A stretch of DNA of 64,000 bases from Nitrospiria bacterium (GTDB lineage: Bacteria; Nitrospirota; UBA9217), in assembly GCA_919901555.1 (NCBI GenBank), contig CAKKPG010000012.1:10654-74653 (forward strand), written 5' to 3'. Position 1 is the stretch's first letter, and each line of letters begins with the position of its first letter. Shown here in pieces: positions 8,339-37,193 of this stretch. Made by a program: the position numbers and the translations under genes. The notes beneath the pieces are model-generated. The model was not told the origin of the DNA. It ran no database searches and saw only the letters and a program-made list of their open reading frames with translations.

Positions 8339-8344
8339 CAGGCC

Positions 8345-18276: not shown

Positions 18277-18342
18277 AATTCCTCCAAAGACCTTGTTCCG
18301 CTGTCCATTTGTACGACCTGATATTCTTTTCAGGCGGTATGA

Positions 18343-18789
18343 CTACTCCCAATATTTTTTCTTAAAGTCACTCATAATATAAATTTCTTTCACCAGGAAT
18401 CCCATGAACACAAAGAATGATATAAGCCATACAGAATTAACAATAAAATTTGTTACGAGCAAAGCTGACAGAAATAAGGATTCTATTATGCAACTTTTCT
18501 TATTAAAAGTTTTAGCGAGCACACTTTTTATCTCTTCATAATTCTTCACTAACTGAATTACCACAATGAAGAAAAGCAGGGCTATCAAAATAATATCAAT
18601 ATAAAAAAATAACTTATTTCGCCAAAGTGCACTTCTGTAAATAATCAAAATAATTAAAACAAGAAAACCACTAAATAGTGCGTTAATAGCAAGCTTCAGA
18701 CGGTCTTTTGCAAATCTTCTAACTTTTAAATTGTGCATTATTAAATAAAGTGTTGTGTTTATAAATAACAACAGCGATTCATTATTCAT
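18343..18789 (-). CDS. Small AT-rich 4-TM membrane protein (cassette 1)
   Basis: Start MNNESLLLF at 18789 with a GGAGG SD. Very hydrophobic (I/L/F-rich). GC content is far below the flanking genes. It sits between the transglutaminase-like gene and the giant gene. Confidence 0.6.
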   Translation of the reverse strand: MNNESLLLFINTTLYLIMHNLKVRRFAKDRLKLAINALFSGFLVLIILIIYRSALWRNKLFFYIDIILIALLFFIVVIQLVKNYEEIKSVLAKTFNKKSCIIESLFLSALLVTNFIVNSVWLISFFVFMGFLVKEIYIMSDFKKKYWE

Positions 18790-18812
18790 AGTATCGACCT
18801 CCTTCACAAATT

Positions 18813-21800
18813 TTAATAAGCCAATCCATTGCCCAGGCAATTACTTTGAGTTGCGGAGCCAGCAAAATACATTCTTATCGAATTAATCAGTATTTGAACG
18901 GGTCGAAATGTAATAAAAACGATTAGAATATTTCGCACAGTGATTGCAGCCAAAATATTTAATGCTATAGCAGCAACACAGTCTTGTGCGGTACTACTTG
19001 CCTCAGTCATGAGCCAATTCAAGAAAGCCAGATAAATTGGCAAAAGCAACGATAGAATAGCAAATGCAATGGGTCCTGCCAATATTGATAAAGCTAACAG
19101 AAGTAGACCAACACCGATGAGAAGCAACGCGCCATTTTCACCCGAACTAATCATATACGCTCCTGCCCCTGTAACTGGATCAGTAATAATATAACCACAA
19201 AGTAGGCGGTCATTGTAGCTGACATTCGTTCTTGGAACAGTAACTTCTTTTCCTGCATTTACCGCGTTCGCAATAACGCTTTTCACATCTTCACTGACCT
19301 GCAATTGCGGAAGAATAATATTTATATTCGTTTGGTTGACAGTGTAGATGGAGATTCCTTGATCACTTGCTATTTGCAACGCTTTTACTGCTGAGATACC
19401 CTGCACCACATCGCTCGGCGTCGAATACATCCGTTCTGGGATCAGATGCTCCAAGGCTGATGACATACTGCCAGATGTGAGCATATATTTTCTGACATTA
19501 TCTGTGTTTCCGTTTTTACTGAATACGGCCTGCATGATTCTGTCCACATCCATCATCATACCCCCAAAACCAGTCCACGTCGGAATTCCGAATACGGCCT
19601 GAACAGCAAGCTGCGTCGAACACAGTCCGATAGAGGGAACTCGATACCGTATTGCATCTTGTGCTTTCGCGGCAATCTCATCACTTAAATCAAGCTCATT
19701 GAAATAGGTTGTAATTGTCATAAATAAGAGATCACCAACGACATCATCTTTCGTGATCCCGCCGTAAGTCTGAGTAACTATTTTTTCTTTCGTGGTTTCA
19801 AGCTTCGCTTTGAGAGCGTTAAGTCGATCCCCTCCAACTCGTCCTGTGTCCAGACCGATCCCGTAATATTCACCCGCCTGAATCATGTTATCGATATTGC
19901 TCAATCCTATTCCCGGCTCATTAAGCGACATGGTGAACGACTGCGCACTGCCCATCGTGCCAGGAGCGCCGGTTGCCACAATTTGTCCGTCTATACGTAG
20001 TTCAGACTTGAGATTGATAAGATACGCCGGGAATGATGACGGCAGTTCACTTGGCTGGATGGGTGTGCCATCTGGATGAGGCTGAGGTAAAAATGATTCT
20101 ATAACAGCTTGATCGTTGGCAGTTGCTGGTGAGAATGACAATGTGATCTTTTTGCCCGCAAGCTCCGGGAGGCTAGCACTATAGAAAAGCCCTGTACCTG
20201 CGCCTGTGGAATCGGGAATACTGAAGCTTATGGTCGCGCGCAGGTTGTCAGGAACTTGAGCAAACTGAGAGCCGATCTGCACGGTCTTGTACGGAAGTGT
20301 TTCGGGTAATATGCCGAACTCCTGCTTGATAATCTCCTTCTTGCCGACCACATCCCCTACTGTCGCATTGGGATGGTTCTGCTGAATGTAGTTCTGCACC
20401 TGCGTCTGGTAGTCCTGCATAGTCTGCTGGATCAGGGTGGAGTTCACGTTCGTTACATACCCTTCTGTTTCATTGATCGTCGAAGTCGATTGAAGCTGAT
20501 TGGCAAAGGTTTGTGCGTCAAAGGGCACGGCTGACTGGATGTCAATTCCCTGCGTATAGGCATACTGCTTGAATGAAGGATCAAGCTGGATCCAGGTATC
20601 GGGCTGTCGATGAACGGCCCCGCGGCTCGGGATATAATCGATGAACGCGCTGACCCATACGTGTTCCATCCTCACGTATTTATAGACGCTGCCGCTGGTT
20701 TTGAGAAGCGTAACGGGAACGCCGTTGGTGGCAAGAATCGTTCCGACCATCATCGGATTGGTCACATCGCCGACCCAGTTCATTGCTTTTTCGATGGGGA
20801 TATCGACGGTGCCGTAGGCGTAGCGTGCGGAGATGCCGGACGTGCGAAGCAAAGCGATGAGCAAACTGGCAGTGTCGGTGTCGTTGCAAATCCTTGACTG
20901 AAGGCACTGGTCCGCCCCTTGGATGCTGCCATAGGTGGGTGCATATTCGATATTATTGCGGACCCATTCGTAGATTCTGAGCGGTGAGTTGCCGAGTTCG
21001 GCGGCTTTGGCGCGGATTTCGGGCGTGAATTGGACTTCGGGAGTTTCGGATAGGTCAGCGGCGGTCGGAATATCCGCTGTCTGCTGCGCGAGAAGGATCG
21101 GTGCTGAATCGGCGAAGGCTACCTGCAGAATCGCCCCCTCCCCCCCTCCCTCTCCCACAAGGGGGCGAGGGAGTTGAAGCGGAACATCACTCGCAATTTC
21201 GTTGAATGCGAGGAGAACGGGTTTCGATTGCGGCTTGCTCGCCAGGAGATCAGGCATCAACCGGCTGTCGGAGATATTACGACTGCTGTGTGACTTTTGC
21301 TTTCGAAAATCGCGCTCGAACTCTTCCTTTTTCAAGCGCGGTGCGACCGTTTTGGTCGCTTTCCGGACGCGAAACGGCAGATTCTCCGGATCGAGCCGTT
21401 GCACGAGCTTTTTCGGCCGGGTCTTGTCTAGGTGCAAACGTACTTTCTCTATCTTCGCCTTTCGCTCCGCCGGGGTCCTGGCCGCGTCTATGTCGTTTAA
21501 CTCATCCCGGAGTTGCGTGTAGTTGGCGGTATAGTTTTTAACGAACGCCGTATGCCTATCGCGTATTTCGCGGGGCAAGCCAGCGATCTTCTTCTCCGTG
21601 GCGGCGAATTCCGCCTGGAGCTGCTCATTCAAATCAGCGAGTTGGGTTTTCCTGTTCCCGACCTCCCGGATTTCCGCGGAAGCATCCTCGCCCTTTGCAT
21701 TCTTCTCGCTTGCCTTGCCGACCTTCTCGCGTATTGCCTCAAGAACACCTTCAAATTTTTCTTCGGGCTTTTGCTCTCTGCTTACTGGCTTTCCGGGCGC

Positions 21801-21935
21801 CTGTTCCACGGACGCTGCTTTCTGTTTCTCTGCGGCAAATGCAGCGGGTATCTGGAATAAAGGGCCAAATGACCATAGAAAACAGGTGAGAACAGTCCAT
21901 ACCGTGACTCGGAAGCTGAAAGAATAGGCGCGCAT
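18813..21935 (-). CDS. Membrane-anchored transglutaminase-like (papain-fold Cys-His-Asp) domain protein, cassette 1
   Basis: 1040 aa. N-terminal signal/anchor, K/E-rich coiled coil, then the core: LRIYEWVRNNIEY...GADQCLQSRICNDTDTASLLIALLRTSGISARYAYG (Cys), HVWVSAFIDY (His) and WIQLDPS (Asp). The C-terminus has several TM helices. GGAGAG SD before the ATG. Confidence 0.8.
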   Translation of the reverse strand: MRAYSFSFRVTVWTVLTCFLWSFGPLFQIPAAFAAEKQKAASVEQAPGKPVSREQKPEEKFEGVLEAIREKVGKASEKNAKGEDASAEIREVGNRKTQLADLNEQLQAEFAATEKKIAGLPREIRDRHTAFVKNYTANYTQLRDELNDIDAARTPAERKAKIEKVRLHLDKTRPKKLVQRLDPENLPFRVRKATKTVAPRLKKEEFERDFRKQKSHSSRNISDSRLMPDLLASKPQSKPVLLAFNEIASDVPLQLPRPLVGEGGGEGAILQVAFADSAPILLAQQTADIPTAADLSETPEVQFTPEIRAKAAELGNSPLRIYEWVRNNIEYAPTYGSIQGADQCLQSRICNDTDTASLLIALLRTSGISARYAYGTVDIPIEKAMNWVGDVTNPMMVGTILATNGVPVTLLKTSGSVYKYVRMEHVWVSAFIDYIPSRGAVHRQPDTWIQLDPSFKQYAYTQGIDIQSAVPFDAQTFANQLQSTSTINETEGYVTNVNSTLIQQTMQDYQTQVQNYIQQNHPNATVGDVVGKKEIIKQEFGILPETLPYKTVQIGSQFAQVPDNLRATISFSIPDSTGAGTGLFYSASLPELAGKKITLSFSPATANDQAVIESFLPQPHPDGTPIQPSELPSSFPAYLINLKSELRIDGQIVATGAPGTMGSAQSFTMSLNEPGIGLSNIDNMIQAGEYYGIGLDTGRVGGDRLNALKAKLETTKEKIVTQTYGGITKDDVVGDLLFMTITTYFNELDLSDEIAAKAQDAIRYRVPSIGLCSTQLAVQAVFGIPTWTGFGGMMMDVDRIMQAVFSKNGNTDNVRKYMLTSGSMSSALEHLIPERMYSTPSDVVQGISAVKALQIASDQGISIYTVNQTNINIILPQLQVSEDVKSVIANAVNAGKEVTVPRTNVSYNDRLLCGYIITDPVTGAGAYMISSGENGALLLIGVGLLLLALSILAGPIAFAILSLLLPIYLAFLNWLMTEASSTAQDCVAAIALNILAAITVRNILIVFITFRPVQILINSIRMYFAGSATQSNCLGNGLAY

Positions 21936-22276
21936 AATGGCTCTCCATGTATTCAGTTTATTAAAGCAAAAAACGAAAATCAGGTAATGCGTTACAGCGA
22001 AAGCAGGAAATTCTGATACCGTTCAAAACGCGAACCGTCGACCGGGAAAAACAAGAAAGGTGTTTCGTAAGGTAAAGCCTTCATAGCACAACCCTGTGTG
22101 CCTGTCAATCATATTATTGCAGTAAGGGACCATCACAATAATATGGTTTATCATTCTGCGTTAAGACTTTAAACTATGATTATTGACGAGAATATTATAA
22201 ATAGGCCAAAATAGCAAAGGATTTATTGGCCTATAGCCTATTAATTTATTCAGCTTTTTGCCTTATCCTCTAATGC

Positions 22277-22630
22277 ATGAAAACTGCCAAACTGCTTGTC
22301 GTGCTGGGGGAGAAAATACGGGAGGTAAGGAAAGGGAAAAAGCTTTCCCAGGAACGGCTTGCCGAACTGTCGAATTTGCACCCGACATATATTTCCGACA
22401 TCGAAAACGGCAAGGTGAACGCCTCCCTCTACAGCTACTATCAAATTGCTCAAGCCCTTACTATCCCGCTGTCCGAACTTGTCGTATTGCCTCAACCAAA
22501 GGCTGAACGACAAATCGAATTCAAGCTTACGGAGTTATTCAGCCAAGCGAGAGCTCTCGACAGAAAAAAGAAAGCCGTATTCATAGCGGCTGCCCGTGGT
22601 CTTCTTTCAGGGATCGATGAAGTGCTGTAG
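22277..22630 (+). CDS. XRE-family helix-turn-helix transcriptional regulator (divergent from cassette 1)
   Basis: 117 aa. LGEKIREVRKGKKLSQERLAELSNLHPTYISDIENGK is a canonical HTH_3. Confidence 0.8.
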   Translation: MKTAKLLVVLGEKIREVRKGKKLSQERLAELSNLHPTYISDIENGKVNASLYSYYQIAQALTIPLSELVVLPQPKAERQIEFKLTELFSQARALDRKKKAVFIAAARGLLSGIDEVL

Positions 22631-22697
22631 GCGGCTCGAATGAATGATGACGCCGCTCGGCGCAAACCCGGACGCGAAGAAAAGGCATTGGATTGCG

Positions 22698-23573
22698 CTA
22701 TGTCTCCCCTCGCTCGCGGAACAGCCGCGACGCTCTTGCCCGCAGCGTGCATACGGGGCAGCCTCCTCTTCTGTATCTATCGATGATTCTTTCTCGATAT
22801 TCATGCCCTTTCCGGCATTTCCACCATACGAGGCGCGTGGAAAATGGGGAGACGTCCTTCGGCGTCCAGGTCCCGTTCTTCGCAGAATGCCACTCGCGGG
22901 ACAGCCACGGCGCTTTGGCCTCAAGGCAGTTCTCCTCGGCCGGCCTTCGCCCTGAACAGTAAGGGCATCCGTCTCCTTCGCTTCTGTTCTCTACAACAGA
23001 TTGCCATTCATGACCTTTTCGGCATATCCACCAGACTTTTTTGTTGGATTTAGGGAGAACATCCTTCGGCGTCAAAGGAGCATTCTTCGTATGATGCCAC
23101 TCGCGGGCAAGCTTTGGATCTACGGCCTGAAGGCAGGTATCAGCGGTTGCTTGTCGTCCTGAGCAACAAGGGCACCCGTAACCGGAGGTCCTTCTATATA
23201 AGGGGGCCGGCCACTCATGCCCTTTCTTGCACACCCACCAGACTTTCCTGCCGGAGCCGGCAGTGACATCTTTCGTCGTCAGAGGAGCATTTTTCGTCGG
23301 ATGCCACTCCCTGGCCAGCTTCGGATTTACGGTTTTTAGACAATTGTCTTTATTCACTCTTCGTCCAGAGCAATATGGGCAGCCTTCGTCTCGGCCTCTG
23401 TCCGAGATGCGAGCATCCCACTCATGACCTTTATCGCAGAGCCACCAGACTTTGATATGCGCGCCAGGGGTCACATCCTTCGGCGTAAGCGGTGCGTTCT
23501 TCGTGGGGTGCCACTGGCGTGCGAGCGCCCTGTTCACTTTAGCGAGTGTAGGTTTCACGTTCTGTTTTATCAT
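22698..23573 (-). CDS. Protein of four tandem treble-clef zinc-ribbon repeats (DUF4379-like)
   Basis: 291 aa. Four repeats of about 63 aa: LAREWHPTKNAPLTPKDV...KVWW.C.KGHEW.......GCPYCSGRR. Its ATG overlaps the stop of the upstream 527-aa ORF (ATGA). Confidence 0.7.
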   Translation of the reverse strand: MIKQNVKPTLAKVNRALARQWHPTKNAPLTPKDVTPGAHIKVWWLCDKGHEWDARISDRGRDEGCPYCSGRRVNKDNCLKTVNPKLAREWHPTKNAPLTTKDVTAGSGRKVWWVCKKGHEWPAPLYRRTSGYGCPCCSGRQATADTCLQAVDPKLAREWHHTKNAPLTPKDVLPKSNKKVWWICRKGHEWQSVVENRSEGDGCPYCSGRRPAEENCLEAKAPWLSREWHSAKNGTWTPKDVSPFSTRLVWWKCRKGHEYRERIIDRYRRGGCPVCTLRARASRLFRERGET

Positions 23574-25096
23574 GCAATGTTACTGGCTTTGGTGAGTTCG
23601 GTTATCTGATTGCCTGAATCTGCAACCAGATAAAGAGTATGCGCACCGTCTCCCCTGAGGGTCACGCCGATTGTCCCGGTGCGGACCTCCGTGCCCGTAA
23701 GGCCGGAAATATTTCCGGTCTGGAGGAGCGTCCCGCCAGAGGCGGGGTCCCCGTCGTAGAGAGATATGGTAAATGCCCCTGTCTCGGACTCGCCCAGGTT
23801 TCTGACCTTGTATTCCAGAGTGAAGGCAGTTCCGGCACTCGGAACATAGGTCGAAGGCTTGAGGTCTTCGGAGTAAACGGCAATATCAGGTTCGGTTGCT
23901 ACCCAGATGCGGGATGAGGATTTGTTGTCACTCTCTGATGTTTCGGAGATGGTATTGTCCGGGTCTGCGACAACGAAGATCGTCTTGCCGCCGGTGCCGG
24001 TAAAGGATTGAGAGATGGATGCTTGAGACGATGAATTGACGGATAAAGAAGGAAGGATTTGATCGACACCAATTTGCATGCCGCCGGCAGAGGGATCTCC
24101 AAGATAAAACCGAACAACAATATCCGATGCACTGTCATAGCCTGAATTGCGAACGTTTGCGGTGAGCGTTATCGTCTCCCCTTCTCGCGGCATGGGATTG
24201 GTGAACGATACCGATGCTACTGAAAGGTTTGGTCGTACACTCGCCAGCGCACGAAGAGCCAAAGCGGTCGAGTAAGGATCATCATTCCAACTGCCATTAG
24301 CTGATTGACTTGTAGTCAGATAATTTACCGTTGCAGGAACGACCGCTGAAACATTCGATCCGCTTGCTATCAGGGCATCAAGCGCCAGAGCTGATTCGTA
24401 AACTTTTGACGGCGAACTTCCAAAACCACCATCGGCATTCTGCTTTGAAAGCAGATAAGCGACAGCCTTGTCTATTGAGCTTTGGACATTGAAGGTAACA
24501 TTATTGTATGACGCTAACATTTGAAGTATAGTAGCAGTCAAGTAAACATTGCTGACCGCGTCATCCTTGAATCCCCAGCCGCCATCATTTTTTTGATTCG
24601 AAGTAAGATAATTTATCGCTTGGAAGAGAACGCCAAAGTCGGAATAATTTGCTGAACGAAGAGCTTGCAAGGCAAGGGTGGTATCTAAAATGCCGTCGTC
24701 AAAACCCTTATGTGTCCCCCAGCCGCCAACAACAAGATCGCGATAATAGAGCAGCACTTCGACTTCAGCGGATGCATCCATACCTGCTCGTTTGAGCGCG
24801 GCAATCCGCCGTGAGAGATAATCCGTTGGCGAAACAGCCTGGCTGCTGAGCCACGTAAGACCCTCAGTATACGTCGAACTCGTTGGCTCAAAGACATAGA
24901 CAGCATCCAGCGCAGCGGATGTGGAGTAGTACTCAGTCGTCTCTACAGCGGGCCAATTACCGGTAGTGGTCTGGGCGGAATTGAGCCACCTGAGGCCTGT
25001 CGGAATTTGCGGTATTTGAGCGGATGCAAAAGAGGTAAATAAAAACATTAAGAATGAACCAATCAGAAAGCTCAAGCGACTTGCTCTTTTGAACAT
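23570..25096 (-). CDS. Truncated paralog of the giant protein (signal peptide, alpha/alpha-toroid domain and about 2.5 CARDB modules); possibly a decayed copy
   Basis: Start MFKRASRLSFLIG at 25096 with a GGAGGAGG SD. About 80 aa of the mature N-terminus are identical to the giant protein. It ends inside a CARDB module (LYLVADSGNQITELTKASNIA-stop) where the giant protein continues. Confidence 0.6.
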   Translation of the reverse strand: MFKRASRLSFLIGSFLMFLFTSFASAQIPQIPTGLRWLNSAQTTTGNWPAVETTEYYSTSAALDAVYVFEPTSSTYTEGLTWLSSQAVSPTDYLSRRIAALKRAGMDASAEVEVLLYYRDLVVGGWGTHKGFDDGILDTTLALQALRSANYSDFGVLFQAINYLTSNQKNDGGWGFKDDAVSNVYLTATILQMLASYNNVTFNVQSSIDKAVAYLLSKQNADGGFGSSPSKVYESALALDALIASGSNVSAVVPATVNYLTTSQSANGSWNDDPYSTALALRALASVRPNLSVASVSFTNPMPREGETITLTANVRNSGYDSASDIVVRFYLGDPSAGGMQIGVDQILPSLSVNSSSQASISQSFTGTGGKTIFVVADPDNTISETSESDNKSSSRIWVATEPDIAVYSEDLKPSTYVPSAGTAFTLEYKVRNLGESETGAFTISLYDGDPASGGTLLQTGNISGLTGTEVRTGTIGVTLRGDGAHTLYLVADSGNQITELTKASNIA

Positions 25097-25160
25097 AGCT
25101 CCTCCTCCGACACCGATGATCCCAGCATGCATGATAACCACAGGCGCAAGCATAGAAAAA

Positions 25161-25484
25161 TTATCGTTTATAAAAAATAAACAAAAAAAGTAAAATCAGA
25201 ACAAAAAATATTATTGAGTATAAAATAACCTCTGCAGGTTTATAGCCCTGTTGTAACTTCAGAATAAGGGGATGCCGTTTTTCTTTAAGCAGAGCGAGAA
25301 GAATAGCGGCCAATGCGATAACGGATAATATAACAATTGCAAAAGGATCGTTCCGAGATTCAAAAATTCCTAAGCCAACAAAGAAAAGTGAAAAAAAGAA
25401 AATAATTATATTTTTGTTTGCTCGCAAGTAGCGAAAAAACAGGTACAAAGCAATCGATAGATTCAGAAATGCTATTTTATTCAT
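25161..25484 (-). CDS. Small AT-rich multi-TM membrane protein (cassette 2, third)
   Basis: 107 aa, hydrophobic. Overlaps the upstream ORF by 8 nt (translational coupling). Confidence 0.5.
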   Translation of the reverse strand: MNKIAFLNLSIALYLFFRYLRANKNIIIFFFSLFFVGLGIFESRNDPFAIVILSVIALAAILLALLKEKRHPLILKLQQGYKPAEVILYSIIFFVLILLFLFIFYKR

Positions 25485-25884
25485 TTTTCTGATCCCCCAT
25501 TATCTTATTGTCTAATCGTTCGTTTATAGTTTTCAAAAAAGACTCAAGTATCAATACAGCAGCACAAACTATCCAGACTTCGAATAAAACAAAAGGGAAA
25601 ATACTTTTAGGGAAATTTTTTAATAAGTCGTCTGGTAATAACCAGAGAGAGAGCATTGCAATGCTTACTATGATACAAGAATAAATTAATTCTTTCTTTA
25701 TTTGTCGGATTTTAGTGAGTGCTGTGCTGTTGCTAGCGATTATTGACTTAAAATCTTTTGTCTTATACATGAGTGAAGACGATAGACTATTAATCAACTT
25801 TTGCCTTTGATATTTACTAACCCTGACGGCAAAAATTGAAAAAAGGATTACTATTACTCCACTAAGCAATACGAATATCTTCAT
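25477..25884 (-). CDS. Small AT-rich multi-TM membrane protein (cassette 2, second)
   Basis: 135 aa with 3-4 TM segments. AT-rich. Confidence 0.5.
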   Translation of the reverse strand: MKIFVLLSGVIVILFSIFAVRVSKYQRQKLINSLSSSLMYKTKDFKSIIASNSTALTKIRQIKKELIYSCIIVSIAMLSLWLLPDDLLKNFPKSIFPFVLFEVWIVCAAVLILESFLKTINERLDNKIMGDQKNE

Positions 25885-25926
25885 TATATTATTTCACCAG
25901 CCAAGCGCCTACAGTTTTTGCGCCGT

Positions 25927-26349
25927 TTAATAGCTTTTCCGTGTTGCAAACCTGAAGTGTTGCTTGAAGCTAAAGTCTTCTACTCTTAATAATCTGTAGA
26001 AATAAATTATCGACGCCAATATGCTGAATGCCCCTGCGATAATAATTAAGAAAGCAAATACATTATCGATATCACGAAGTGAGATAAAGAGATTCCCGTC
26101 AAAAGTCGCAAATATTTTTGCAACTATAAAGTGCGCTAAGCTATTAAGCTCCATAAATATAAATGCAAATAACCAAAAACGATGCTTAATTAAAACGGCA
26201 AAAAAGAAAAAAATTAAAAGCGAAAATAAATAATCGCTCATATCATATTTTTTTAGTGGTACAACACTAAAAATTAATAGGAAGTTCCAAACGAATGCAT
26301 AGAAATTAACCAAAATTAAAACCTTTAAAATAACTCTCTCTTTCATCAT
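25927..26349 (-). CDS. Small AT-rich multi-TM membrane protein (cassette 2, first)
   Basis: 140 aa, 4 TM. Lies immediately downstream of the transglutaminase-like gene. Confidence 0.5.
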   Translation of the reverse strand: MMKERVILKVLILVNFYAFVWNFLLIFSVVPLKKYDMSDYLFSLLIFFFFAVLIKHRFWLFAFIFMELNSLAHFIVAKIFATFDGNLFISLRDIDNVFAFLIIIAGAFSILASIIYFYRLLRVEDFSFKQHFRFATRKSY

Positions 26350-26379
26350 AAACCTCCTTTTCTATTGCCTTTCCACTTC

Positions 26380-29300
26380 TCACTGAACAGGGGGGTCGCA
26401 GTGAGTAGCTAATTCTCTGCATTTTGCGCCCTGATTAACGGCCCATGCCACCATACCTGCGCCAATCAGTATTGCAGCAGCATATCCGAACCACCCTCCA
26501 AAGAATTGCATTACCATCGCTATTCCTAAAAATCCTTTAAACAGTTTCTCCAAGCTGCCACTAACAACGAGACCAACACAACCCCAATATTCACTACTAT
26601 GAAAATATTTTATACAATTGCCACCTGCCTGACTAATATAGGTTTCCTCGAGTTCCGCTGCAGCTGCTTCTGTTACTAAGAAGTGTAACGCGATATTAAC
26701 AAAGGGGGCCAGGAGGAAGCCTCCACTTGTCCCTCCGCTTATCATGTACGCTCCGGCACCCGTATTGGGATCTATAATTATATAGCCACACCCGTCCCAG
26801 CCGTTAATATTTATATTCCTTTTCGGAACCGCAATTATTTTTCCCGCATTCAGAGCATCTTGAATATGTTTTTTGACGTCAGCGGCGACTTGAAGTTGTG
26901 AATTAATTATGCTTGCATTTTCCTGATTAATACTATAAATCGGTATGCCCTGCTCACTTGCTATCTGTAACGCTTTAACCGCTGAAAGCCCCTCAACTGA
27001 ATTGCTTGGTGTAGAAAATATCTGCTCTGGGGTTCTGCTTTCGAAAGCAGAAGACACCCCGCCTGATGCGAGCATGTATTCTCTCAATTTGTTCATATCT
27101 CCGTCTTTGCTAAACACGGCTTGCATAATCCTGTCCACATCCATCATCATACCCTTGGAACTGACGGTTTTTGGTATGCCAAATATTTCCTCGACATTCA
27201 TGTGCAAATAGAACATTCCTACAGATGATGTCCTGTATCGAATCACATTTTTTACCTTAGCTGTAATTTCATCAACGGTATCGAGGTCGGCGAAATAATT
27301 AATAGCTGTAAAATACAGCAAATCACCGACAAGAGCATCTTTCGTAAGAGTGGTATAATCTTTTGTCACTAAAAGATTTTTCGTTTCGGCGAGTTTGTCC
27401 TTTATATTTCTCAAAACCTTCTCAGCAATCTTACCTGTATTTAAACCTATACCAAAATATTCACCAGCTTGAATTATATTATCGATACGGCTCACACCAA
27501 AACCCGGCTCAGTAAGCGACATGGTGAACGATTGTGCGCTTCCCATAGTGACAGAAGAACCAGTTGCCACAACCAGGCCCTCTATGCGGAGTTCTGGCTT
27601 GAGATTGATGAGATACGCTGGCAATGAGCCGGGGGTTGCTTGAAGATATGTTTCTATAATGGTTTTATCGTTGGCTGTAGCCGGTGAGAAGGAGAGCGTG
27701 ATCTTCTTTCCAGCTATCTGAGGCAGGCTGGTGCTATAGGAAAGTCCAGCACTCATGCCAGTGGGGTCGGGAATGCTGAAGCTGATGGTCGCGCGGAGAC
27801 TGTCGGGAATCTGTGCAAACTGCAATCCAACAAGGATGGTCTTATACGGCAGCGTCTCGGGCAGGATTCCGAATTCCTGTTTAATGATCTCCTTCTTCCC
27901 GAGAACATCGCCGACAGTGGCGTTGGGATAGTTTTGGTTGATGTAATTCTGAACCTGTGTTTGATAATCCTGCATGGTCTGCTGGACCAAAGCGGAGTTC
28001 ACATTCGTTACATACCCTTCTGTTTCGTTGATAGTGGCTGTTGCCTTGATCTGGTCTGCCAAAGCTTGGGCATCAAAGGGCACAGCTGTCTTGATATCGA
28101 TTCCCTGGGTGTAAGTGTACTGCTTGTAGCTCGGGTCGAGCGGCACCCAGGTATCGCCCTGTTTGTGGACCGCCCCGCGACTTGGAATATAGTCGATCCA
28201 AGCCCTTACGTAAACATGTTCGAGTTGTACGGCTTTATATGTTCCGCCGCTTGTCTTCATGAGTGTTACTGGTATGCCATTGGTGGCGAGAATCGTTCCA
28301 GCCATCTTTGGGTCAGTCACACCACCGACGAGGTTCATGGCTTTTTCGATGGGAATTTCGATTGTGGAATATTCGTAATGGGAGTATACCCCTGATACTC
28401 TGAGGAGAGCGATGAGCAAACTGGCAGTGTCGGTGTCGTTGCAAATCCTTGACTGAAGGCACTGGTCCGCCCCCTGGATACTGCCATAGGTGGGTGCGTA
28501 TTCGATGTTATTGCGAACCCATTCGTAGATTCTGAGCGGTGAGTAACTGAGTTCCTGGGCCTTGGCCTTGATGTCGTCAGTGAACTGTATTTCGATCCCG
28601 TTTTCGGCGAGGTCTTCGGCTGTCGGCGCGTCGCCCGCTTGCGCAAGGAGGAATGATGATGAATCGGAGAAAGCTAATTGTGATTGCAAGTTGAGGATTT
28701 CAGATTTCGGATTGAGACCACCCCTCACCCCCGCCCTCTCCCCTGATGGGCGAGGAATTTGGAAAGGAACGTCGCTCGCAGTTTCATTGAATGCCAGGAG
28801 AACGGGTTTGTATTGCCGGCGGCTCGACAGAAGATCAGGCATCAACCGGATTTCGGCAACCTTCCGTTTGTTCTGCGTCTTCTGTTGTGGAAAGTCACGC
28901 TCGAAGTCTTCCCGTTTCAAGCGCGGTTCGCGCGTCTTTGTAACCTTTCTGGCTTTAAACGGCAAATTGTTCGGATCAAGTTTTTGATGGCGCGAGGGGC
29001 CTTTGGTCTTTTCGAGAAATACCCTGACCTTCCCGGCTGCAATCCTGGCTTCGTCCCCTGTCTTTGCTTTTTCTACACCGTCCAGGTGGGTCCTGAGAGC
29101 GCTCAGGCCCTCACCGTATCTCTTCACGAACGCCCTCTGCCGCTGTTTAATCACCTCCGGGAGGTTTTTGATCTTGGTTTCGGTTTCCTTGAATTGCCTC
29201 TGTAATTCCGTGTCAAGCGTCTCCAACTCGCTCTTCTCGGCTTTGAGCTTCTCGCGGTCCTCTCCTGCTTCTCCTATCCGGTTGAGGCTCTCCCGGAATT

Positions 29301-29478
29301 TTTCTTCGGTCGATTTTCGTCTTTCCTGTCCGCTGGTCGCCGCCTTTTGCCCTTTCGTCCCCCTGGACCCCGCCGCGGCATAAGAGGCTGGAATTTGGAA
29401 TAAAGGCCCGAAACACCATAAATACAGCATGAGGGTGATACTGGCCGTGATTTTCAAATTCATAGAATAAGTCCGCAT
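26380..29478 (-). CDS. Membrane-anchored transglutaminase-like domain protein, cassette 2
   Basis: 1032 aa, a paralog of 18813..21935 with the same coiled coil, TGase core (ICNDTDTASLLIALLRVSG / HVYVRAWIDY / WVPLDPS) and C-terminal TM region. Confidence 0.8.
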   Translation of the reverse strand: MRTYSMNLKITASITLMLYLWCFGPLFQIPASYAAAGSRGTKGQKAATSGQERRKSTEEKFRESLNRIGEAGEDREKLKAEKSELETLDTELQRQFKETETKIKNLPEVIKQRQRAFVKRYGEGLSALRTHLDGVEKAKTGDEARIAAGKVRVFLEKTKGPSRHQKLDPNNLPFKARKVTKTREPRLKREDFERDFPQQKTQNKRKVAEIRLMPDLLSSRRQYKPVLLAFNETASDVPFQIPRPSGERAGVRGGLNPKSEILNLQSQLAFSDSSSFLLAQAGDAPTAEDLAENGIEIQFTDDIKAKAQELSYSPLRIYEWVRNNIEYAPTYGSIQGADQCLQSRICNDTDTASLLIALLRVSGVYSHYEYSTIEIPIEKAMNLVGGVTDPKMAGTILATNGIPVTLMKTSGGTYKAVQLEHVYVRAWIDYIPSRGAVHKQGDTWVPLDPSYKQYTYTQGIDIKTAVPFDAQALADQIKATATINETEGYVTNVNSALVQQTMQDYQTQVQNYINQNYPNATVGDVLGKKEIIKQEFGILPETLPYKTILVGLQFAQIPDSLRATISFSIPDPTGMSAGLSYSTSLPQIAGKKITLSFSPATANDKTIIETYLQATPGSLPAYLINLKPELRIEGLVVATGSSVTMGSAQSFTMSLTEPGFGVSRIDNIIQAGEYFGIGLNTGKIAEKVLRNIKDKLAETKNLLVTKDYTTLTKDALVGDLLYFTAINYFADLDTVDEITAKVKNVIRYRTSSVGMFYLHMNVEEIFGIPKTVSSKGMMMDVDRIMQAVFSKDGDMNKLREYMLASGGVSSAFESRTPEQIFSTPSNSVEGLSAVKALQIASEQGIPIYSINQENASIINSQLQVAADVKKHIQDALNAGKIIAVPKRNININGWDGCGYIIIDPNTGAGAYMISGGTSGGFLLAPFVNIALHFLVTEAAAAELEETYISQAGGNCIKYFHSSEYWGCVGLVVSGSLEKLFKGFLGIAMVMQFFGGWFGYAAAILIGAGMVAWAVNQGAKCRELATHCDPPVQ

Positions 29479-29742
29479 GGTTTGTTCTCCATTTATTCAG
29501 TTTTTAAAGCAAAAGCTAAAACAGGTAATGCCTGTCTGCGTGCGGTCACGCACAGGCAGGCGTTAATGCAAAAGCAGTAATTCTGATACTGATCTAATCG
29601 TGATTCGTCGAACCAGCAAATGTTGTAAGGAAGGTGCTGCTTTTAGATTGTCTTTTGTAGCATAATTTTATTTTACAGTCAATGCAAACTGCCACATCTT
29701 GACAGATTGATGAAATGGTGATATTTCCACGTATTGCCATTA

Positions 29743-29772
29743 TTTATACATGCAATAGACAGATATTGTCAA
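29743..29772 (-). promoter_or_regulatory. Candidate sigma-70 promoter for the cassette 2 transglutaminase-like operon (TTGACA-18 nt-TATAAA on the minus strand)
   Basis: The reverse complement reads ttgacaatatctgtctattgcatgtataaa. Sits about 260 nt upstream of the ATG at 29478 and would give a long leader containing the element conserved with cassette 1. Confidence 0.45.
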
Positions 29773-29830
29773 GTAATTTCTTTGTATTGCATTGTTTTCA
29801 TGACAAGCAAATGCTTCTATTATTGCACTC

Positions 29831-30163
29831 ATGAAAATCAAGAGCGCCTCTATTAAACAACAAGTGGGCTTACGCATCAAACATGTAAGAAAAACCAGGG
29901 GCCTATCTCAGGAAAAACTCTCCGAGAAGGTCGCCATGAGTTCGAAGTATTTGAGCAGTATCGAAAGAGGGAAAGAGAACCCTACTTTGGATACCTTCAT
30001 TAAATTGGCACAGGCATTGAACGTCGAAATTTCTGAATTGTTCAATTATGCCGGCGAAAAGTCCGTTCAGGAATCTAAAAAGTACCTCCTCGATTTAATG
30101 AAGGGCAGTGACAAGGAGAAGCTTGATCTCGCGGTTAAGATGCTAAGAGCGCTTTACTTGTAG
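29831..30163 (+). CDS. XRE-family helix-turn-helix transcriptional regulator (divergent from cassette 2)
   Basis: 110 aa. VGLRIKHVRKTRGLSQEKLSEKVAMSSKYLSSIERGK is an HTH_3. Confidence 0.8.
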   Translation: MKIKSASIKQQVGLRIKHVRKTRGLSQEKLSEKVAMSSKYLSSIERGKENPTLDTFIKLAQALNVEISELFNYAGEKSVQESKKYLLDLMKGSDKEKLDLAVKMLRALYL

Positions 30164-30212
30164 TTGTCCTTTTCCATTTCAAAACTCCTTTCTTATTCTC
30201 GCCGCCACGCGG

Positions 30213-32969
30213 TTACTTCTCCAGCGGCTTCAGATACCCGTCCTTATCAAGTATGATTTCGTTGCTATTGCTCTTGATTTTGATCTCAGTCTGTCCGTCT
30301 CCATCAAAATCCGAGATTACGAGAGCGCTGTCGTATGACGCGAACAGCGCATCGGGCGCAAGATTGTTCAGATACACCGGCCCCCATTTGATTTTGCCGT
30401 CATGCTCGGTCAAATAGACGCTCCCTTCCATATATTGTGCCGGAGAATACACCTGCGTAATGAGCAGAACAATCTCGGGCAAGCGATCGTCATTGAATTT
30501 AGCAATTGTATATGTGCCTGTTCCTAAGAACTTATCCACTCCTGCTGTATATCTGCCGTCGTTGTCTTTGTCTTCGAAAATGAGAATACTGGCGGAATCA
30601 GCAATCTTTGCGTTACCGGTGTTTTCGAATGCTGCTTTCACATGAGGGGACAAGGTTAAGGTCTGGCTGGTGAAGAGCATGCTTGTAAAGTTCGGCGCTG
30701 TTGGTACGTTATCGGGGCCGAGAATTTCGTCCGGCACCTTGATCTTGAGTGAGCGGATGGCCTGGTTGTTGGTCTCGTAGAGTTCGGTGACGACGCTTTC
30801 CGTGTCCGTGATGGCGTAGAACCGGTAGGTCCAGGGGACTGCGGTGAAGGTGTAGGGGAGCGTAGTTGTTCCGTCTCCCTGTATGCTGTCTACTGTATAC
30901 GTCGTTAAAAGCGTCCCTCCTGAAGCGGGGTCTCCGTCATAGAGCGCGAGGTTGAAGGCGCCCGTCTCCCTGATGCCCGCGTTGTGGACCGTGACGGAGA
31001 GGAGAACGGAGTCGCCGGAAACGGGATGGGACGGGGTAAAAGACAGGTCCGTTGCGGAAATGGTGATGTCCACCATATCGGTCATGACCCGGACCGCGGC
31101 GGTGTTGTTGCTTTCATCGGCTTCGGATATCGCGTTCGTTTGGTCAGCGATGACGTAGAGGTCATGAATGCCGGAACTGATCGTCCAGCTTGCGGTCGCC
31201 GTGTATGTCCCGCCTGAAGCGAGGGATGAGACTGTCTCGCTCTTGATGAGCGTGCCGCCGGATTCCGGCGCATTGTCGTAGATGTCCACGGTAAAGGAGC
31301 CTGCGTCCGCGTATCCCTGGTTCCGGATGATCGCGCTGATCTGGACAGTCTGGTTGGCTGTGGGCCGGCTGGGGGTGAGGGTGATTTCGCCGGACGTAAC
31401 CGCAAGGTCAACCTGTCCCTGCAAGCCCCCGACGGTGACCGTGACCGTGCCGGTGTTGTTGGTCTCGGATAATTCAGGGATCAGGGTTCCGGGGTCAGCG
31501 GTCAGGTAAAGCGTATGCGAGCCGTCGCCGGTAAGCGTGACGCCGAAAGAGCCCGTGCGGACCGCTGTGCCCACAAGACCGGAAATATTTCCGGTCTGAA
31601 GGAGCGTCCCGCCAGAGGCGGGGTCCCCATCGTAGAGAGATATGGTAAAAGCCCCTGTCTCGGACTCACCCAGGTTCCTGACCGTGTATTCCAGTGTGAA
31701 CGCAGTTCCGGCACTCGGAACATAGGTCGAAGGTTTCAGGTCTTCGGAGTAAACGGCAATATCCGGCCCCGTCGCGACCCAGATGCGGGCAGAGGATTTG
31801 TTGTCACTCTCTGAGGTTTCGGAGATGGTATTGTCCGGGTCCGCGACCACGAAGATGGTCTTGCCGCCCGTGCCGGTGAAGGATTGTGTGATCGAGACTT
31901 GAGATGATGAATTGACGGATAAAGAAGGAATGATTTGATCAGAACCAATTTGAGTTCCGCCAGCAGAAGGGTCACCGAGATAAAAACGAACGATTATATT
32001 AGAAGCGTTGTCGAATCCCGTGTTCTTTACTGCAGCAGTAATCGTGATGGACTCATTTTCTATCGGCATTGACTTTGAAAGGGAAATATCACTTGATGAA
32101 ATAACAAGATTAGGCCTCGCGCTCGCGAGCGCGCGCAAGGCAAGCGCCGTGGAATAGGGATCGTCATTCCAACTGCCGTCCGATAACTGATTTGTGGTGA
32201 GATAGGCGGCGCCGTTGGATACAACGGTTGTGATATTGGCCGCTCCGCTCGAAATCAATGCGTCGAGCGCTAAACCGGAATCGTAAACCATAGAAGGACT
32301 GGAGCCGAAACCACCGTCCGGATTCTGTTTCGTGAGGAGATACGCAATTGTCCTGTCAATCGAACTTTGAACGTTGAAGGTGACGCTATTATATGAAGAC
32401 AAGGTTTTCAAGACTGCGGCGGTTGCGAAAACATTGCTGTCCTCACCGGCCGCGAAGCCCCAGCCGCCGTCCGAATTTTGATTCGAGGTAATGAAATTTA
32501 CGGCCTGAAAAAGAACAGAATAATCGGAGTAAGCCAGTGCCTGGAGAGCCTGGAGGGCGAGAGCCGTGTCCAGGATATTGTAAAAATATTCCGAATCGCC
32601 TCCCCATGCGCCGTCGGAATTGCGGTAAAGAAGCAACCCCTCTAATTCGCTGGAAGTGTCCTGTCCGGCGCGTTTAAGCGCGATGATCCGTCTCGAGAGA
32701 TAATCCGTCGGCGATACGACTTGGCCGCTCATCCACTGAAAGGCCGTGCTGTATGCAGGGTTTAAGGGATCAAGGGCATAAACAGCATCCAGTGCCGCGG
32801 CCGTGGAGTAATAATCGGTGGTCGTGACCTCCGGCCAATTTCCGGCGGACGTCTGCGAAGAATAAAGCCACGTGAGGCCGGAGGAAATTTGGGGAGATTG
32901 GGCAAAAGCGAAAGAATGTATTGTCGATAATAAGATAAAAGCAGCGATGATTTGGACGCTTTTTCGCAT
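30213..32969 (-). CDS. Internally deleted and C-terminally truncated paralog of the giant protein (cassette 3)
   Basis: Start MRKSVQIIAAFILL at 32969 with a GGAGGAGC SD. Same alpha/alpha-toroid domain and CARDB series. It jumps from ...LGTGTYTIAKFNDDRLPEIV into an FG-GAP segment that lies about 300 aa further on in the giant protein, then terminates. Confidence 0.65.
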   Translation of the reverse strand: MRKSVQIIAAFILLSTIHSFAFAQSPQISSGLTWLYSSQTSAGNWPEVTTTDYYSTAAALDAVYALDPLNPAYSTAFQWMSGQVVSPTDYLSRRIIALKRAGQDTSSELEGLLLYRNSDGAWGGDSEYFYNILDTALALQALQALAYSDYSVLFQAVNFITSNQNSDGGWGFAAGEDSNVFATAAVLKTLSSYNSVTFNVQSSIDRTIAYLLTKQNPDGGFGSSPSMVYDSGLALDALISSGAANITTVVSNGAAYLTTNQLSDGSWNDDPYSTALALRALASARPNLVISSSDISLSKSMPIENESITITAAVKNTGFDNASNIIVRFYLGDPSAGGTQIGSDQIIPSLSVNSSSQVSITQSFTGTGGKTIFVVADPDNTISETSESDNKSSARIWVATGPDIAVYSEDLKPSTYVPSAGTAFTLEYTVRNLGESETGAFTISLYDGDPASGGTLLQTGNISGLVGTAVRTGSFGVTLTGDGSHTLYLTADPGTLIPELSETNNTGTVTVTVGGLQGQVDLAVTSGEITLTPSRPTANQTVQISAIIRNQGYADAGSFTVDIYDNAPESGGTLIKSETVSSLASGGTYTATASWTISSGIHDLYVIADQTNAISEADESNNTAAVRVMTDMVDITISATDLSFTPSHPVSGDSVLLSVTVHNAGIRETGAFNLALYDGDPASGGTLLTTYTVDSIQGDGTTTLPYTFTAVPWTYRFYAITDTESVVTELYETNNQAIRSLKIKVPDEILGPDNVPTAPNFTSMLFTSQTLTLSPHVKAAFENTGNAKIADSASILIFEDKDNDGRYTAGVDKFLGTGTYTIAKFNDDRLPEIVLLITQVYSPAQYMEGSVYLTEHDGKIKWGPVYLNNLAPDALFASYDSALVISDFDGDGQTEIKIKSNSNEIILDKDGYLKPLEK

Positions 32970-33043
32970 AGCTCCTCCGGATATCTCAATGAATATCTTC
33001 AATGCAGAGAGACAAAACATACTACCTCAAACGTCACTCGATT

Positions 33044-33544: not shown

Positions 33545-33561
33545 CTTTCCGCTCCTTAGTT

Positions 33562-37191: not shown

Positions 37192-37193
37192 CT

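Follow-up and report, generated by a model that had tools for sequence, protein, structure and literature searches.

A DUF4379 zinc-ribbon array gene on the CARDB-module end of a short surface-protein gene in groundwater Nitrospirota

Introduction

Stop and start codons that overlap as ATGA or TGATG mark translationally coupled gene pairs in bacterial operons. We analyzed a window of 64,000 nucleotides from a groundwater Nitrospirota genome (contig CAKKPG010000012.1), in which such an overlap joins the gene of an apparently truncated surface protein to the gene of a zinc-ribbon protein. The two are the last two genes of the middle one of three tandem cassettes. The locus raises the question of whether the pair is the debris of a recently broken giant gene, two halves of a split module, or an old and maintained arrangement.

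Results

The cassettes have the order divergent XRE regulator, transglutaminase-like protein, small membrane protein(s) and TED-CARDB surface protein. The features of the middle cassette and its border are as follows.

29831..30163, plus strand: XRE-family HTH gene (110 aa), divergent from the 1,032-aa transglutaminase-like gene
26380..29478, minus strand: transglutaminase-like protein (1,032 aa), first gene of the cassette
25161..26349, minus strand: three small membrane-protein ORFs (140, 135 and 107 aa; 30-31% GC), between the transglutaminase-like gene and the short form
23570..25153, minus strand: short-form TED-CARDB protein, maximal ORF of 527 codons (p527; ORF list, Pfam)
23570..23573, minus strand: ATGA overlap of the short-form TGA (23572-23570) and the DUF4379-gene ATG (23573-23571)
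22698..23573, minus strand: nuclease-less array of 291 aa with four DUF4379 treble-clef zinc ribbons (p291; ORF list, Pfam, AlphaFold)
22277..22630, plus strand: XRE-family HTH gene (117 aa), paralogue of the HTH gene at 29831-30163

The HTH gene at 29831..30163 is the probable regulator of this cassette, and the one at 22277..22630 is convergent with the zinc-ribbon gene and divergent from the transglutaminase-like gene of the next cassette. PADLOC matched the XRE HTH genes to generic 'control protein' models. It recognised no other protein of the cassette (p527, p291, the small ORFs and the transglutaminase-like protein), so that no known anti-phage defence system was identified. A 14.3-kb block with both genes is missing from strains about 99% identical in the flanks, and no zinc-ribbon gene is found in the 2,972-aa and 935-aa cassettes of the window or in the single-cassette strains L004/L005. 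The literature that we searched held nothing relevant on a cassette of CARDB, transglutaminase and FG-GAP proteins or on giant or zinc-ribbon genes of Nitrospirota.

Both minus-strand ORFs, of 527 codons (23570-25153) and 291 codons (22698-23573), were found in the window. The plus-strand tcat at 23570-23573 is ATGA on the minus strand, so that the stop of the first ORF and the start of the second overlap by 4 nt at 23573-23570, just as a sequence-only reading of the window had described. The stop at 23570-23572 was checked as a possible sequencing error and found to be genuine: the junction-spanning Logan assemblies ERR3858120 and ERR3858121, independent of each other, are exact substrings of the window, and an ENA assembly is 99.98% identical to the window over 19 kb.

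The probable true start of the short form is the ATG at 25096-25094, which is preceded by a Shine-Dalgarno sequence (ggaggaggag) and gives a protein of 508 aa, in agreement with the NCBI call (P0143, named 'CARDB domain-containing protein'). NCBIfam offered no informative name for either this protein or the zinc-ribbon protein. The parts of the short form are these.

25013..25096, minus strand: signal peptide (MFKRASRLSFLIGSFLMFLFTSFASAQ, followed by I), aligning with the N-termini of the 2,972-aa and 935-aa paralogues
24239..25012, minus strand: prenyltransferase/squalene-cyclase/TED-like alpha/alpha toroid (Pfam; 13 helices in the AlphaFold model, pLDDT >90)
23915..24232, minus strand: CARDB module 1, residues 308-413 of the 527-codon ORF, Pfam profile positions 2-100 of 101
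23579..23890, minus strand: CARDB module 2, residues 422-525, Pfam profile positions 2-97 of 101, ending in ADSGNQITELTKASNIA and the stop

The AlphaFold model of the short form has a pLDDT of 90.5, with a low-pLDDT N-terminal helix in the signal-peptide region. The toroid matched the TED profile at 34.7 bits (cutoff 22), and CARDB (PF07705) matched in two stretches at 102.5 bits (cutoff 22.7). The protein carries a signal peptide, has a pI of 4.4 and has no cysteine. It therefore cannot hold a thioester, and a thioester protein of the TED, alpha-2-macroglobulin/complement type was ruled out, there being no Cys for a CGEQ-type motif; the toroid is, by profile and model, prenyltransferase/TED-like in fold only. 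That the ORF stops inside a CARDB module turned out to be barely true. Module 2 covers the profile up to position 97, compared with positions 2-99 for the same module in the intact paralogue, and in the AlphaFold model it lacks only the short strand after the NN motif, which module 1 has (E391-399).

Alignment of the 527-, 935- and 2,972-aa proteins confirmed that the giant gene has a shorter paralogue in the short form. Residues 20-525 match residues 1-505 of the 2,972-aa protein at 76% identity, and identity to the 935-aa protein is 69%. Short form and 2,972-aa CARDB/FG-GAP paralogue share the signal peptide, the toroid and CARDB modules 1 and 2, but the short form has about 2,460 residues fewer (six further CARDB modules, FG-GAP repeats and the C-terminal region) and, unlike the giant protein, is a member of a length class of 505-515 aa that is conserved. 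It has a mosaic N-terminus drawn from the paralogues of its own genome. DNA homology with the paralogues extends to 23578, 6 nt short of the stop codon (23572-23570).

The downstream gene encodes the four tandem CHCC zinc-ribbon repeats that had been predicted, and both Pfam and a check of the ligands bear them out.

23340..23546, minus strand: DUF4379 repeat 1, residues 10-78, ligands C46 H50 C65 C68
23133..23339, minus strand: DUF4379 repeat 2, residues 79-147, ligands C115 H119 C134 C137
22926..23132, minus strand: DUF4379 repeat 3, residues 148-216, ligands C184 H188 C203 C206
22719..22925, minus strand: DUF4379 repeat 4, residues 217-285, ligands C253 H257 C272 C275, then a short C-terminal helix

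DUF4379 (PF14311), a family described as 'probable treble-clef zinc finger', matched p291 at 267.6 bits (cutoff 24.5) in four stretches, the best covering profile positions 1-56 of 56. The repeat period in the gene is 207 nt, and the copies are 62-73% identical to each other in nucleotides. As in other DUF4379 repeat proteins, the tandem repeats are about 69 aa long and have the same fold and CHCC ligands. The ligand set is intact in all four repeats, and most ligands are invariant in 22 homologues. The AlphaFold model (pLDDT 94) shows a beta-hairpin and a helix in each repeat and matches solved DUF4379 chains. The protein has no signal peptide, a pI of 9.8 and 16 Cys. The four repeats fill all 291 aa, with no nuclease, helicase or methylase domain; lacking a nuclease, p291 cannot mobilise itself. 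The only other Pfam match is a sub-threshold one of the ZnF_RZ type (17.3 bits, cutoff 27). Neither direct nor inverted repeats flank the gene, which speaks against a transposon-like element. GC3 of the p291 gene is 0.59 as against 0.49-0.63 in the other large cassette genes, so that foreignness inside the cassette is not evident from this measure, although the three-cassette array as a whole differs from the core genes (GC3 = 0.80).

The dN/dS of p527 was 0.14 against the N-terminus of the 2,972-aa protein and 0.13 against the 935-aa protein, compared with 0.13 between the intact paralogues. For p291 and the 293-aa protein of locus L092 (see below) it was 0.14. These ratios indicate that both genes are under purifying selection, and neither ORF has a frame disruption. 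Together with the conserved length class of the short form, they rule out a pseudogene and contradict the suggestion of a decayed copy. A functional split module is also unlikely: the short form is predicted to be exported (pI 4.4, no Cys) and p291 to stay in the cytoplasm (pI 9.8, 16 Cys), and products of different compartments would not be two halves of one module.

We found the same kind of junction in at least 11 loci of other Nitrospirota genomes and metagenomes, in which a DUF4379-array gene sits directly on a CARDB-module end and the proteins are 51-66% identical. In each of these loci the CARDB-module end lies in front of the DUF4379 gene. Seven of the loci have a short form of 505-515 aa that ends at the same residue, and nine short forms share one end column in the alignment. 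The module-end leader stands after module 2 in seven loci and after module 3 in two; in two further loci a decayed leader lies behind unrelated ORFs. Locus L092 (513 + 293 aa, four repeats) is colinear with the window pair and is followed by a convergent HTH gene and the next transglutaminase-like gene. A same-residue short form followed by an array at 51-66% identity is also found in L170 (508 + 428 aa), L171 (511 + 425 aa, then an HTH gene), L090/L091, L093 and L009b. Further junctions are those of L009a, L012/L006 (924 aa + 495 aa, ATGA), L013 (after module 3, ATGA) and L192 (module-3 leader). L172/L173 have the short form without a DUF4379 gene. DUF4379 fused in frame to CARDB was found nowhere among the loci and listed matches examined; there was only the overlapping two-gene form. 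In the literature that we searched, there was no description of a secreted-protein gene whose 3' end carries a DUF4379-array gene with a CARDB-end leader and an overlapping start.

These data bear on the proposal that a zinc-ribbon gene replaced about 2,400 distal codons of a giant gene. Paralogous homology does end a few bases before the zinc-ribbon start, as the proposal requires, but the replacement is neither private nor recent because loci with no more than 51-66% protein identity show the same architecture. The comparison indicates that the junction event is old and that many uncultured Nitrospirota have kept the pair of short form and DUF4379 gene. The short forms of the other loci form no clade with p527, whose N-terminus is mosaic, and inheritance of the entire pair from one ancestor is not separable from repeated transfer of the junction. 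In a neighbour-joining tree built from the arrays, which is not robust for proteins made of repeats, CARDB-linked genes did not group apart from unlinked ones. The homologues listed for the short form did not include the window's own 935-aa and 2,972-aa paralogues and so give no census of long versus short forms.

The junction offset is constant (NN + 2-4 codons) after two different modules, and cacgATG before the start is common to the module-2 and module-3 junctions. Recombination between repeats would explain the fixed offset and the strain-variable block as well as homing to a conserved target site would.

How p291 might be translated was approached through its start region. No Shine-Dalgarno or GGAG-type motif is present in the 30 nt before the p291 ATG, unlike most neighbouring genes, which carry GGAG(G). 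Downstream of 25507, a consensus scan of the minus strand gave no promoter-like site; promoter and terminator scans did not exceed the shuffled expectation and gave nothing on that strand near the junction. Rfam had no match in 21800-30300. Since p291 has neither a Shine-Dalgarno sequence nor a promoter-like site of its own, coupling to the short form is plausible and is the likeliest route of its translation. The part of the earlier proposal that spoke of preserving coupling was wrong: no earlier coupling existed, and at every site where it occurs the zinc-ribbon gene brings its own CARDB-end leader and overlapping start. The final A of ATGA is the first base of codon 2 in the zinc-ribbon gene (MIK.../MKK...), and comparison of the family indicates that this A is a trait of its conserved N-terminus. 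In related loci with a visible upstream stop the overlap can be as short as 1 nt or as long as about 100 nt: six loci have ATGA, one has TAATG, two overlap by 16 nt, and L090/L091 overlap by about 100 nt and start with GTG. With an overlap that varies in this way, selection for tight termination-reinitiation is not demonstrated. The pair thus resembles coupled bacterial gene pairs in its 4-nt overlap and in the missing downstream Shine-Dalgarno sequence, but differs from them in that the A of ATGA comes from the family N-terminus, in that the overlap length varies among relatives, and in that the products, predicted for separate compartments, are not subunits of one complex.

We scored more than 7,500 DUF4379-array relatives from many bacterial phyla and viruses; p291 relatives are present on viral contigs. 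We know of no bacterial DUF4379 array with an experimentally assigned function. Some long homologues have 10-12 repeats around a weak, sub-threshold REase_MTES_1575 match, which is confined to the longer homologues, and others have seven repeats with a ResIII/SNF2 helicase and a methyltransferase. Homologues 50-58% identical to p291 (best segment) show the weak restriction-endonuclease-like match in mid-protein. Larger arrays elsewhere sit in defence or mobile islands, and unlinked arrays of the Nitrospirota type adjoin HNH_repeat, restriction-modification, Mrr, SNIPE/T5orf172, NERD and HU genes; the HNH_repeat genes, which are homing-endonuclease-associated, lie beside arrays in L009 and L011.

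Free-standing homing-endonuclease genes of phages, such as T4 seg/mob, lie between host genes or at their ends. The p291 gene is likewise a small, strain-variable accessory gene at a host-gene end with modular repeats that probably bind DNA, but it lacks a catalytic domain, is old and under purifying selection, and truncates its host gene at a domain boundary instead of being intergenic. DUF4379/CapR-like repeats are combined with an EDxHD/Vsr nuclease in phage homing-endonuclease genes of group II introns (PMC12350094), and four DUF4379 repeats with a restriction endonuclease domain in Lausannevirus and marseilleviruses (PMC5513546). From these, p291 and its Nitrospirota relatives differ in having no nuclease, helicase or methylase; p291 thus lacks the catalytic domain by which a homing endonuclease is recognised. 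Its gene lies in no intron or intein and, unlike those of the described DUF4379 nucleases, is joined by a CARDB-end leader and an overlapping start to the 3' end of a gene for a secreted protein.

A PDB fold search with p291 returned only DUF4379 proteins of the kinetoplastid mitoribosome, namely mt-SAF33 (6SGA/7PUA) and chain E2 of 6YXX (sequence E = 5e-6; Foldseek E = 1e-13 to 1e-4), and no DNA-bound relative. These mitoribosomal proteins and assembly factors share the fold, but they are components of eukaryotic organellar ribosomes and are 16-28% identical to p291 over the aligned regions, suggesting only that a DUF4379 fold can sit in RNA-protein complexes. DNA binding by p291 is inferred from its family context; RNA or protein binding is possible instead, because the only solved relatives lie in kinetoplastid mitoribosome assembly complexes.

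Discussion

The reading that we favor, and that we hold to be somewhat likelier true than false, is an old landing of a nuclease-less DNA-binding gene, related to homing endonucleases, at a CARDB boundary, where it became a hitch-hiking accessory gene. A DUF4379-array gene, kin of the arrays that in homing-endonuclease-like proteins flank restriction-endonuclease-like regions of the Vsr/PD-(D/E)xK type, would long ago have landed at a CARDB module boundary and so have created the short form. Since then, the unit of module end and DUF4379 gene would have been passed on by descent and also carried from cassette to cassette through recombination in the conserved CARDB-end sequence. With no ribosome-binding site of its own, p291 would be made by ribosomes that terminate on the upstream ORF or read through its end. 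It would then stay in the cytoplasm and bind nucleic acid while the short form is exported, which would make it a hitch-hiker and not a structural partner of the CARDB protein.

Purifying selection and the deep conservation of the pairing would fit a partner that benefits the host equally well. In its fullest form, p291 would be a dedicated cytoplasmic DNA- or RNA-binding regulator, tied stoichiometrically to short-form translation, that feeds back on cassette expression or switching, perhaps with the XRE regulators. Such a role would suit a basic protein with a dN/dS of 0.14 whose gene has no ribosome-binding site, keeps its pairing and overlap over 51-66% protein identity, and is always last in the cassette, right before the HTH or transglutaminase-like gene of the next one. 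We regard it as unlikely, though worth keeping in view, since most cassettes (those of the 2,972-aa and 935-aa proteins and of strains L004/L005) do without a p291-type gene and L172/L173 keep the short form without the array. Moreover, close p291 relatives occur in unrelated defence and mobile-island contexts, and the decayed leaders behind unrelated ORFs show that the gene is mobile.

The array might also be a sequence-reading module for CARDB-end DNA, with the CARDB end and array gene forming a boundary-seeking cassette that is moved by a trans nuclease or by stimulated recombination, an idea that we find improbable. Slightly less probable still is homing that goes on today, in which the array would recognise the DNA encoding the module end (..E.NE.NN..) and a nuclease acting in trans would copy the gene into boundaries, truncating giant genes at varying module numbers. 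No nuclease was found in p291 or its neighbours in the window, although full-size relatives have the sub-threshold endonuclease-like match, phage homing-endonuclease genes pair such repeats with EDxHD/Vsr nucleases (PMC12350094), and HNH_repeat genes lie beside arrays in L009 and L011. The constant offset after two different modules and the presence or absence of the block by strain are what homing would leave, but the cacgATG common to module-2 and module-3 junctions means that homologous recombination between CARDB ends suffices, with no site-specific cleavage. Nor does the remainder of a split giant gene lie downstream of any array, or any repeat flank the gene.

Very improbable is the earlier reading of a recent, private recombination that swapped the distal part of a giant gene for the zinc-ribbon gene and left a pseudogene or split module. 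The stop of homology a few bases from the zinc-ribbon start and the variation of the block between strains agree with it, but many divergent genomes share an architecture that ends at the same residue, the 51-66% protein identity excludes recent spread of one mobile DNA, dS of p527 to its nearest paralogue exceeds 1 with a dN/dS of 0.14, and the two products are predicted for different compartments. An artefact, with an erroneous stop and a frame that runs on, has next to no probability: we found no point in its favor, the Logan and ENA assemblies show the identical junction, the upstream frame past the stop has no similarity to CARDB sequence, and at least 11 other loci have homologous junctions.

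On the conservative reading, an apparent pseudogene becomes a conserved 508-aa short form, and the giant-gene cassettes of groundwater Nitrospirota are seen to be rearranged between closely related strains. Through this locus family DUF4379 arrays gain a defined and recurrent genomic behaviour: here the DUF4379 gene sits exactly on a domain boundary of a repeat-protein gene, carries the boundary sequence along and apparently borrows the ribosomes of its host gene. If the unit were a boundary-seeking cassette, it would set the cut points of giant surface-protein genes and so produce heritable short and long forms in Nitrospirota populations, a previously undescribed way to diversify giant repeat proteins. 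If the array recognises CARDB-end DNA, it would represent a new class of modular DNA reader and a natural mechanism for resizing giant surface proteins.

The gene of a short exported protein overlaps a zinc-ribbon gene

The pair under study consists of two minus-strand ORFs:

25153-23570, minus strand, 527-codon ORF of the short TED-CARDB protein (p527)
23573-22698, minus strand, 291-codon ORF of the zinc-ribbon protein (p291)

The TGA of p527 and the ATG of p291 share the sequence ATGA, which reads tcat on the plus strand at 23570-23573. The window belongs to a Nitrospirota MAG recovered from Hainich groundwater, whose samples underlie ERZ1292619 and ERR3858120/1. Two independent Logan assemblies (ERR3858120, ERR3858121) spanning the junction are exact substrings of the window, and an ENA assembly is 99.98% identical to it over 19 kb; a sequencing error at the p527 stop (23570-23572), which the sequence-only reading had considered, is ruled out by their agreement with the window. 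The short ORF with its overlapping zinc-ribbon gene, as described in that reading, was thus confirmed by the ORFs, the tcat, the Pfam domains and the independent assemblies. The real start of the p527 gene is probably the ATG at 25096, which has ggaggaggag upstream and matches the N-termini of the paralogues in alignment; the protein is then 508 aa long, the length that NCBI records.

In p527, Pfam recognises a toroid of the prenyltransferase/squalene-cyclase/TED-like kind, and CARDB in two stretches. The protein has a signal peptide, a pI of 4.4 and no cysteine, and therefore no thioester; it is predicted to be an exported toroid with two CARDB modules. It shares 76% identity with residues 1-505 of the window's giant paralogue (p2972) and 69% with the 935-aa paralogue (p935), and it is a mosaic, with a toroid nearest p2972 (83%) and CARDB modules nearest p935 (77-82%). 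DNA homology with the paralogues ends at 23578, 6 nt before the stop codon; p527 ends in ...YLVADSGNQITELTKASNIA where the paralogues read ...ITELSETNNTGTVTIQ..., and the CARDB end itself has the sequence GAAACNAACGAAACNAACAAC and variants. The ORF had been described as stopping inside a CARDB module. Its second CARDB covers positions 2-97 of the 101 in the Pfam profile, compared with 2-99 in the intact paralogue module, and the AlphaFold model (pLDDT 90.5) shows a strand after the NN motif in module 1 that is absent from module 2. By this profile coverage and strand comparison, p527 terminates at the extreme edge of the module, short of one small terminal strand.

Pfam found four DUF4379 'treble clef' stretches in p291 (267.6 bits, cutoff 24.5), which repeat with a period of 207 nt and share 62-73% DNA identity between copies. 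No C-H-C-C ligand is missing from any of the four sets, and most ligands do not vary across 22 homologues; a confident AlphaFold model (pLDDT 94) presents the repeats as four beads on a string. The protein lacks a signal peptide, contains 16 Cys, and has a pI of 9.8 with a net charge of about +28. Because the two proteins differ in compartment, cysteine content and pI, they are not halves of one extracellular module, which speaks against the functional split module that the sequence-only reading had raised as a possibility.

The pair is old and recurs in other Nitrospirota

Related loci were found by looking up relatives of p291 and of the short form. L092 is a contig of 15.6 kb from soil or groundwater. 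Its TED + 2xCARDB protein (513 aa) shares 53% identity with p527, and the adjoining gene encodes a four-repeat DUF4379 protein of 293 aa that aligns colinearly with p291 from end to end at 62% identity; beyond it lie an HTH gene in convergent orientation and then the next transglutaminase-like gene. The same pair is present in L170 (508 + 428 aa) and L171 (511 + 425 aa, then HTH), and the module-2 junction is the same in L090/L091, L093 and L009b. Nine short forms (505-541 aa, 51-65% identical to p527) share one terminal alignment column, and the short form is a conserved protein class. The 935-aa form (30213-33020) is likewise a conserved length class: its homologue in L012 (6999-9773; 924 aa, 58-60% identical) has the same FG-GAP-like tail, beyond which the frame continues into the remnant of a CARDB end, and a DUF4379 gene comes next.

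The DUF4379 gene is not confined to module 2. It follows the end of module 3 in L013 (..DRVNQLAETNETNNRASR before the stop) and L192 (..DRNNQINETNNTARW), it comes after the 924-aa homologue in L012/L006, and in L009a the ORF before it is unrelated and contains HNH_repeat domains of the homing-endonuclease-associated type. L012/L006 and L009a still have, ahead of the DUF4379 start, the decayed remnant of a CARDB end (..PLNQINETNETNNTAR before the stop), and the start codon is invariably 2-4 codons past the NN motif. As these module-2, module-3 and decayed-remnant junctions show, the gene travels together with a leader, and this leader is a CARDB module end. In L172 (2286-3978) and L173, a 515-aa short form with the same end residue (..NNIGTKRSLI before the stop) has a Shine-Dalgarno sequence and a gene for a membrane protein after it, in place of a DUF4379 array. 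The bases past NN there faintly resemble the 5' end of the DUF4379 gene (aaacgttcatt vs aaaccttcact), a hint that the array was lost from these loci.

By the Nei-Gojobori method, dN/dS was 0.14 for p527 against the giant N-terminus, 0.13 for p527 against p935 and 0.14 for p291 against the L092 protein, the same as between intact paralogues (0.13). Neither gene is in decay, which speaks against a decayed copy. With dS >1, the divergences are old. The sequence-only reading had a recombination replace the distal part of a giant gene with the zinc-ribbon gene while keeping coupling. Replacement at a module boundary stands and coupling is plausible, but a recent one-off event does not fit the pairs in L092, L170, L171 and others or the dS values; the replacement is ancient and recurrent.

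Recombination among the cassettes

Three cassettes lie in tandem on the minus strand of the window. Each consists of a gene for a transglutaminase-like protein (1,083, 1,032 and 1,040 aa), ORFs for small membrane proteins and a gene for a TED-CARDB protein (935, 527 and 2,972 aa); between cassettes, the plus strand carries XRE HTH genes that diverge from the transglutaminase-like gene that comes next. L004 and L005, whose flanks are about 99% identical to the window, have one cassette only. Their giant gene (2,967 aa) joins the p935 N-terminus (94% over residues 18-839) to p2972, which takes over at about residue 700 (about 100%) and contributes its 2,270 C-terminal codons. The breakpoints correspond to window positions 30712 and about 16405, and the 14.3-kb block between them (16405-30712), two whole cassettes including p527 and p291, is strain-variable and absent from L004/L005. 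Either insertion or deletion, by recombination between paralogous CARDB regions, would account for the difference. The variable block and the p527 mosaic together indicate that recombination among CARDB-protein genes is ongoing, and such recombination would be sufficient to shift a unit of module end plus DUF4379 gene between modules and cassettes.

Several features of the array were observed besides. The small membrane-protein ORFs (18343-18840, 25161-26349, 33044-33571) have 30-36% GC, vs 54% for the window, and no mutual similarity; the transglutaminase-like C-termini diverge too and are rich in transmembrane segments, and both resemble variable toxin/immunity-type ends. The end of the 1,083-aa gene (33541) and the start of a 175-aa ORF (33610) belong to a single 1,250-aa gene in L005, which differs there by two 1-nt indels, one in an A-run (AAAAAA vs AAAAAAA); either a genuine frameshift polymorphism or a mistake in assembly would explain them. 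At 36832-37436 the array is flanked by a toxin-antitoxin-like pair, DUF5615/DUF433; L009 has a pair of this type (8286-8956) beside its DUF4379 genes and its giant CARDB gene. GC3 is 0.29-0.63 in the cassette genes (9358-36813) and about 0.80 in the core neighbours (7700-9052: riboflavin synthase, OmpA-like); the entire array looks like acquired DNA. Some transglutaminase-like proteins carry an NlpC/P60 (+ weak CHAP) peptidoglycan-hydrolase domain (L006/L012 11676-15149, L170 5493-8837), a hint that related cassettes act on cell walls.

Translation and origin of the zinc-ribbon gene

Most genes of the neighbourhood have GGAG(G) 5-10 nt before the start, which is absent at p291, and no promoter-like site was found on the minus strand downstream of 25507. 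The overlap in relatives is ATGA in six loci, TAATG in L093, 16 nt in L092 and L171, and about 100 nt with a GTG start in L090/L091. The final A of ATGA opens codon 2 of a conserved DUF4379-gene N-terminus (MKK.../MIK...), found also in relatives without an upstream ORF. Ribosomes arriving from upstream are the likeliest route to p291 translation, and coupling to p527 is plausible. The main rival to the explanation favoured below, that p291 is a dedicated regulatory partner, we hold to be unlikely, if worth keeping in view.

The only solved relatives of p291 are DUF4379 proteins of kinetoplastid mitoribosome assembly complexes. In other bacteria, 10-12 DUF4379 copies surround a weak (sub-threshold) REase_MTES_1575 match, or seven copies are fused to a ResIII/SNF2 helicase and a methyltransferase. 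DUF4379/CapR-like repeats are presumed DNA-binding modules of EDxHD/Vsr-type homing endonucleases in phage group II introns (PMC12350094), and in Lausannevirus DUF4379 repeats occur together with a restriction endonuclease domain (PMC5513546). Away from CARDB genes, Nitrospirota-type arrays neighbour HNH_repeat, restriction-modification, Fic, Mrr, SNIPE/T5orf172, NERD and HU genes, and viral contigs also carry relatives. The homologues number more than 7,500. At two unrelated loci (L009 4943-6004, L011 11315-12256), HNH_repeat genes (PF18780, 'homing endonuclease associated repeat') without a recognisable nuclease directly adjoin DUF4379 arrays.

No description of a CARDB end with an overlapping DUF4379 gene was found in the searched literature; the arrangement varies known kinds, namely DUF4379 arrays, free-standing homing-endonuclease-like genes and translational coupling. 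We infer that p291 is an accessory gene carried on islands, that its product binds nucleic acid, and that it descends from a homing endonuclease whose nuclease has been lost. The explanation that we favour, by a modest balance of probability, is that p291 is a conserved hitch-hiking, putative DNA-binding gene that defines the short form of the TED-CARDB protein.
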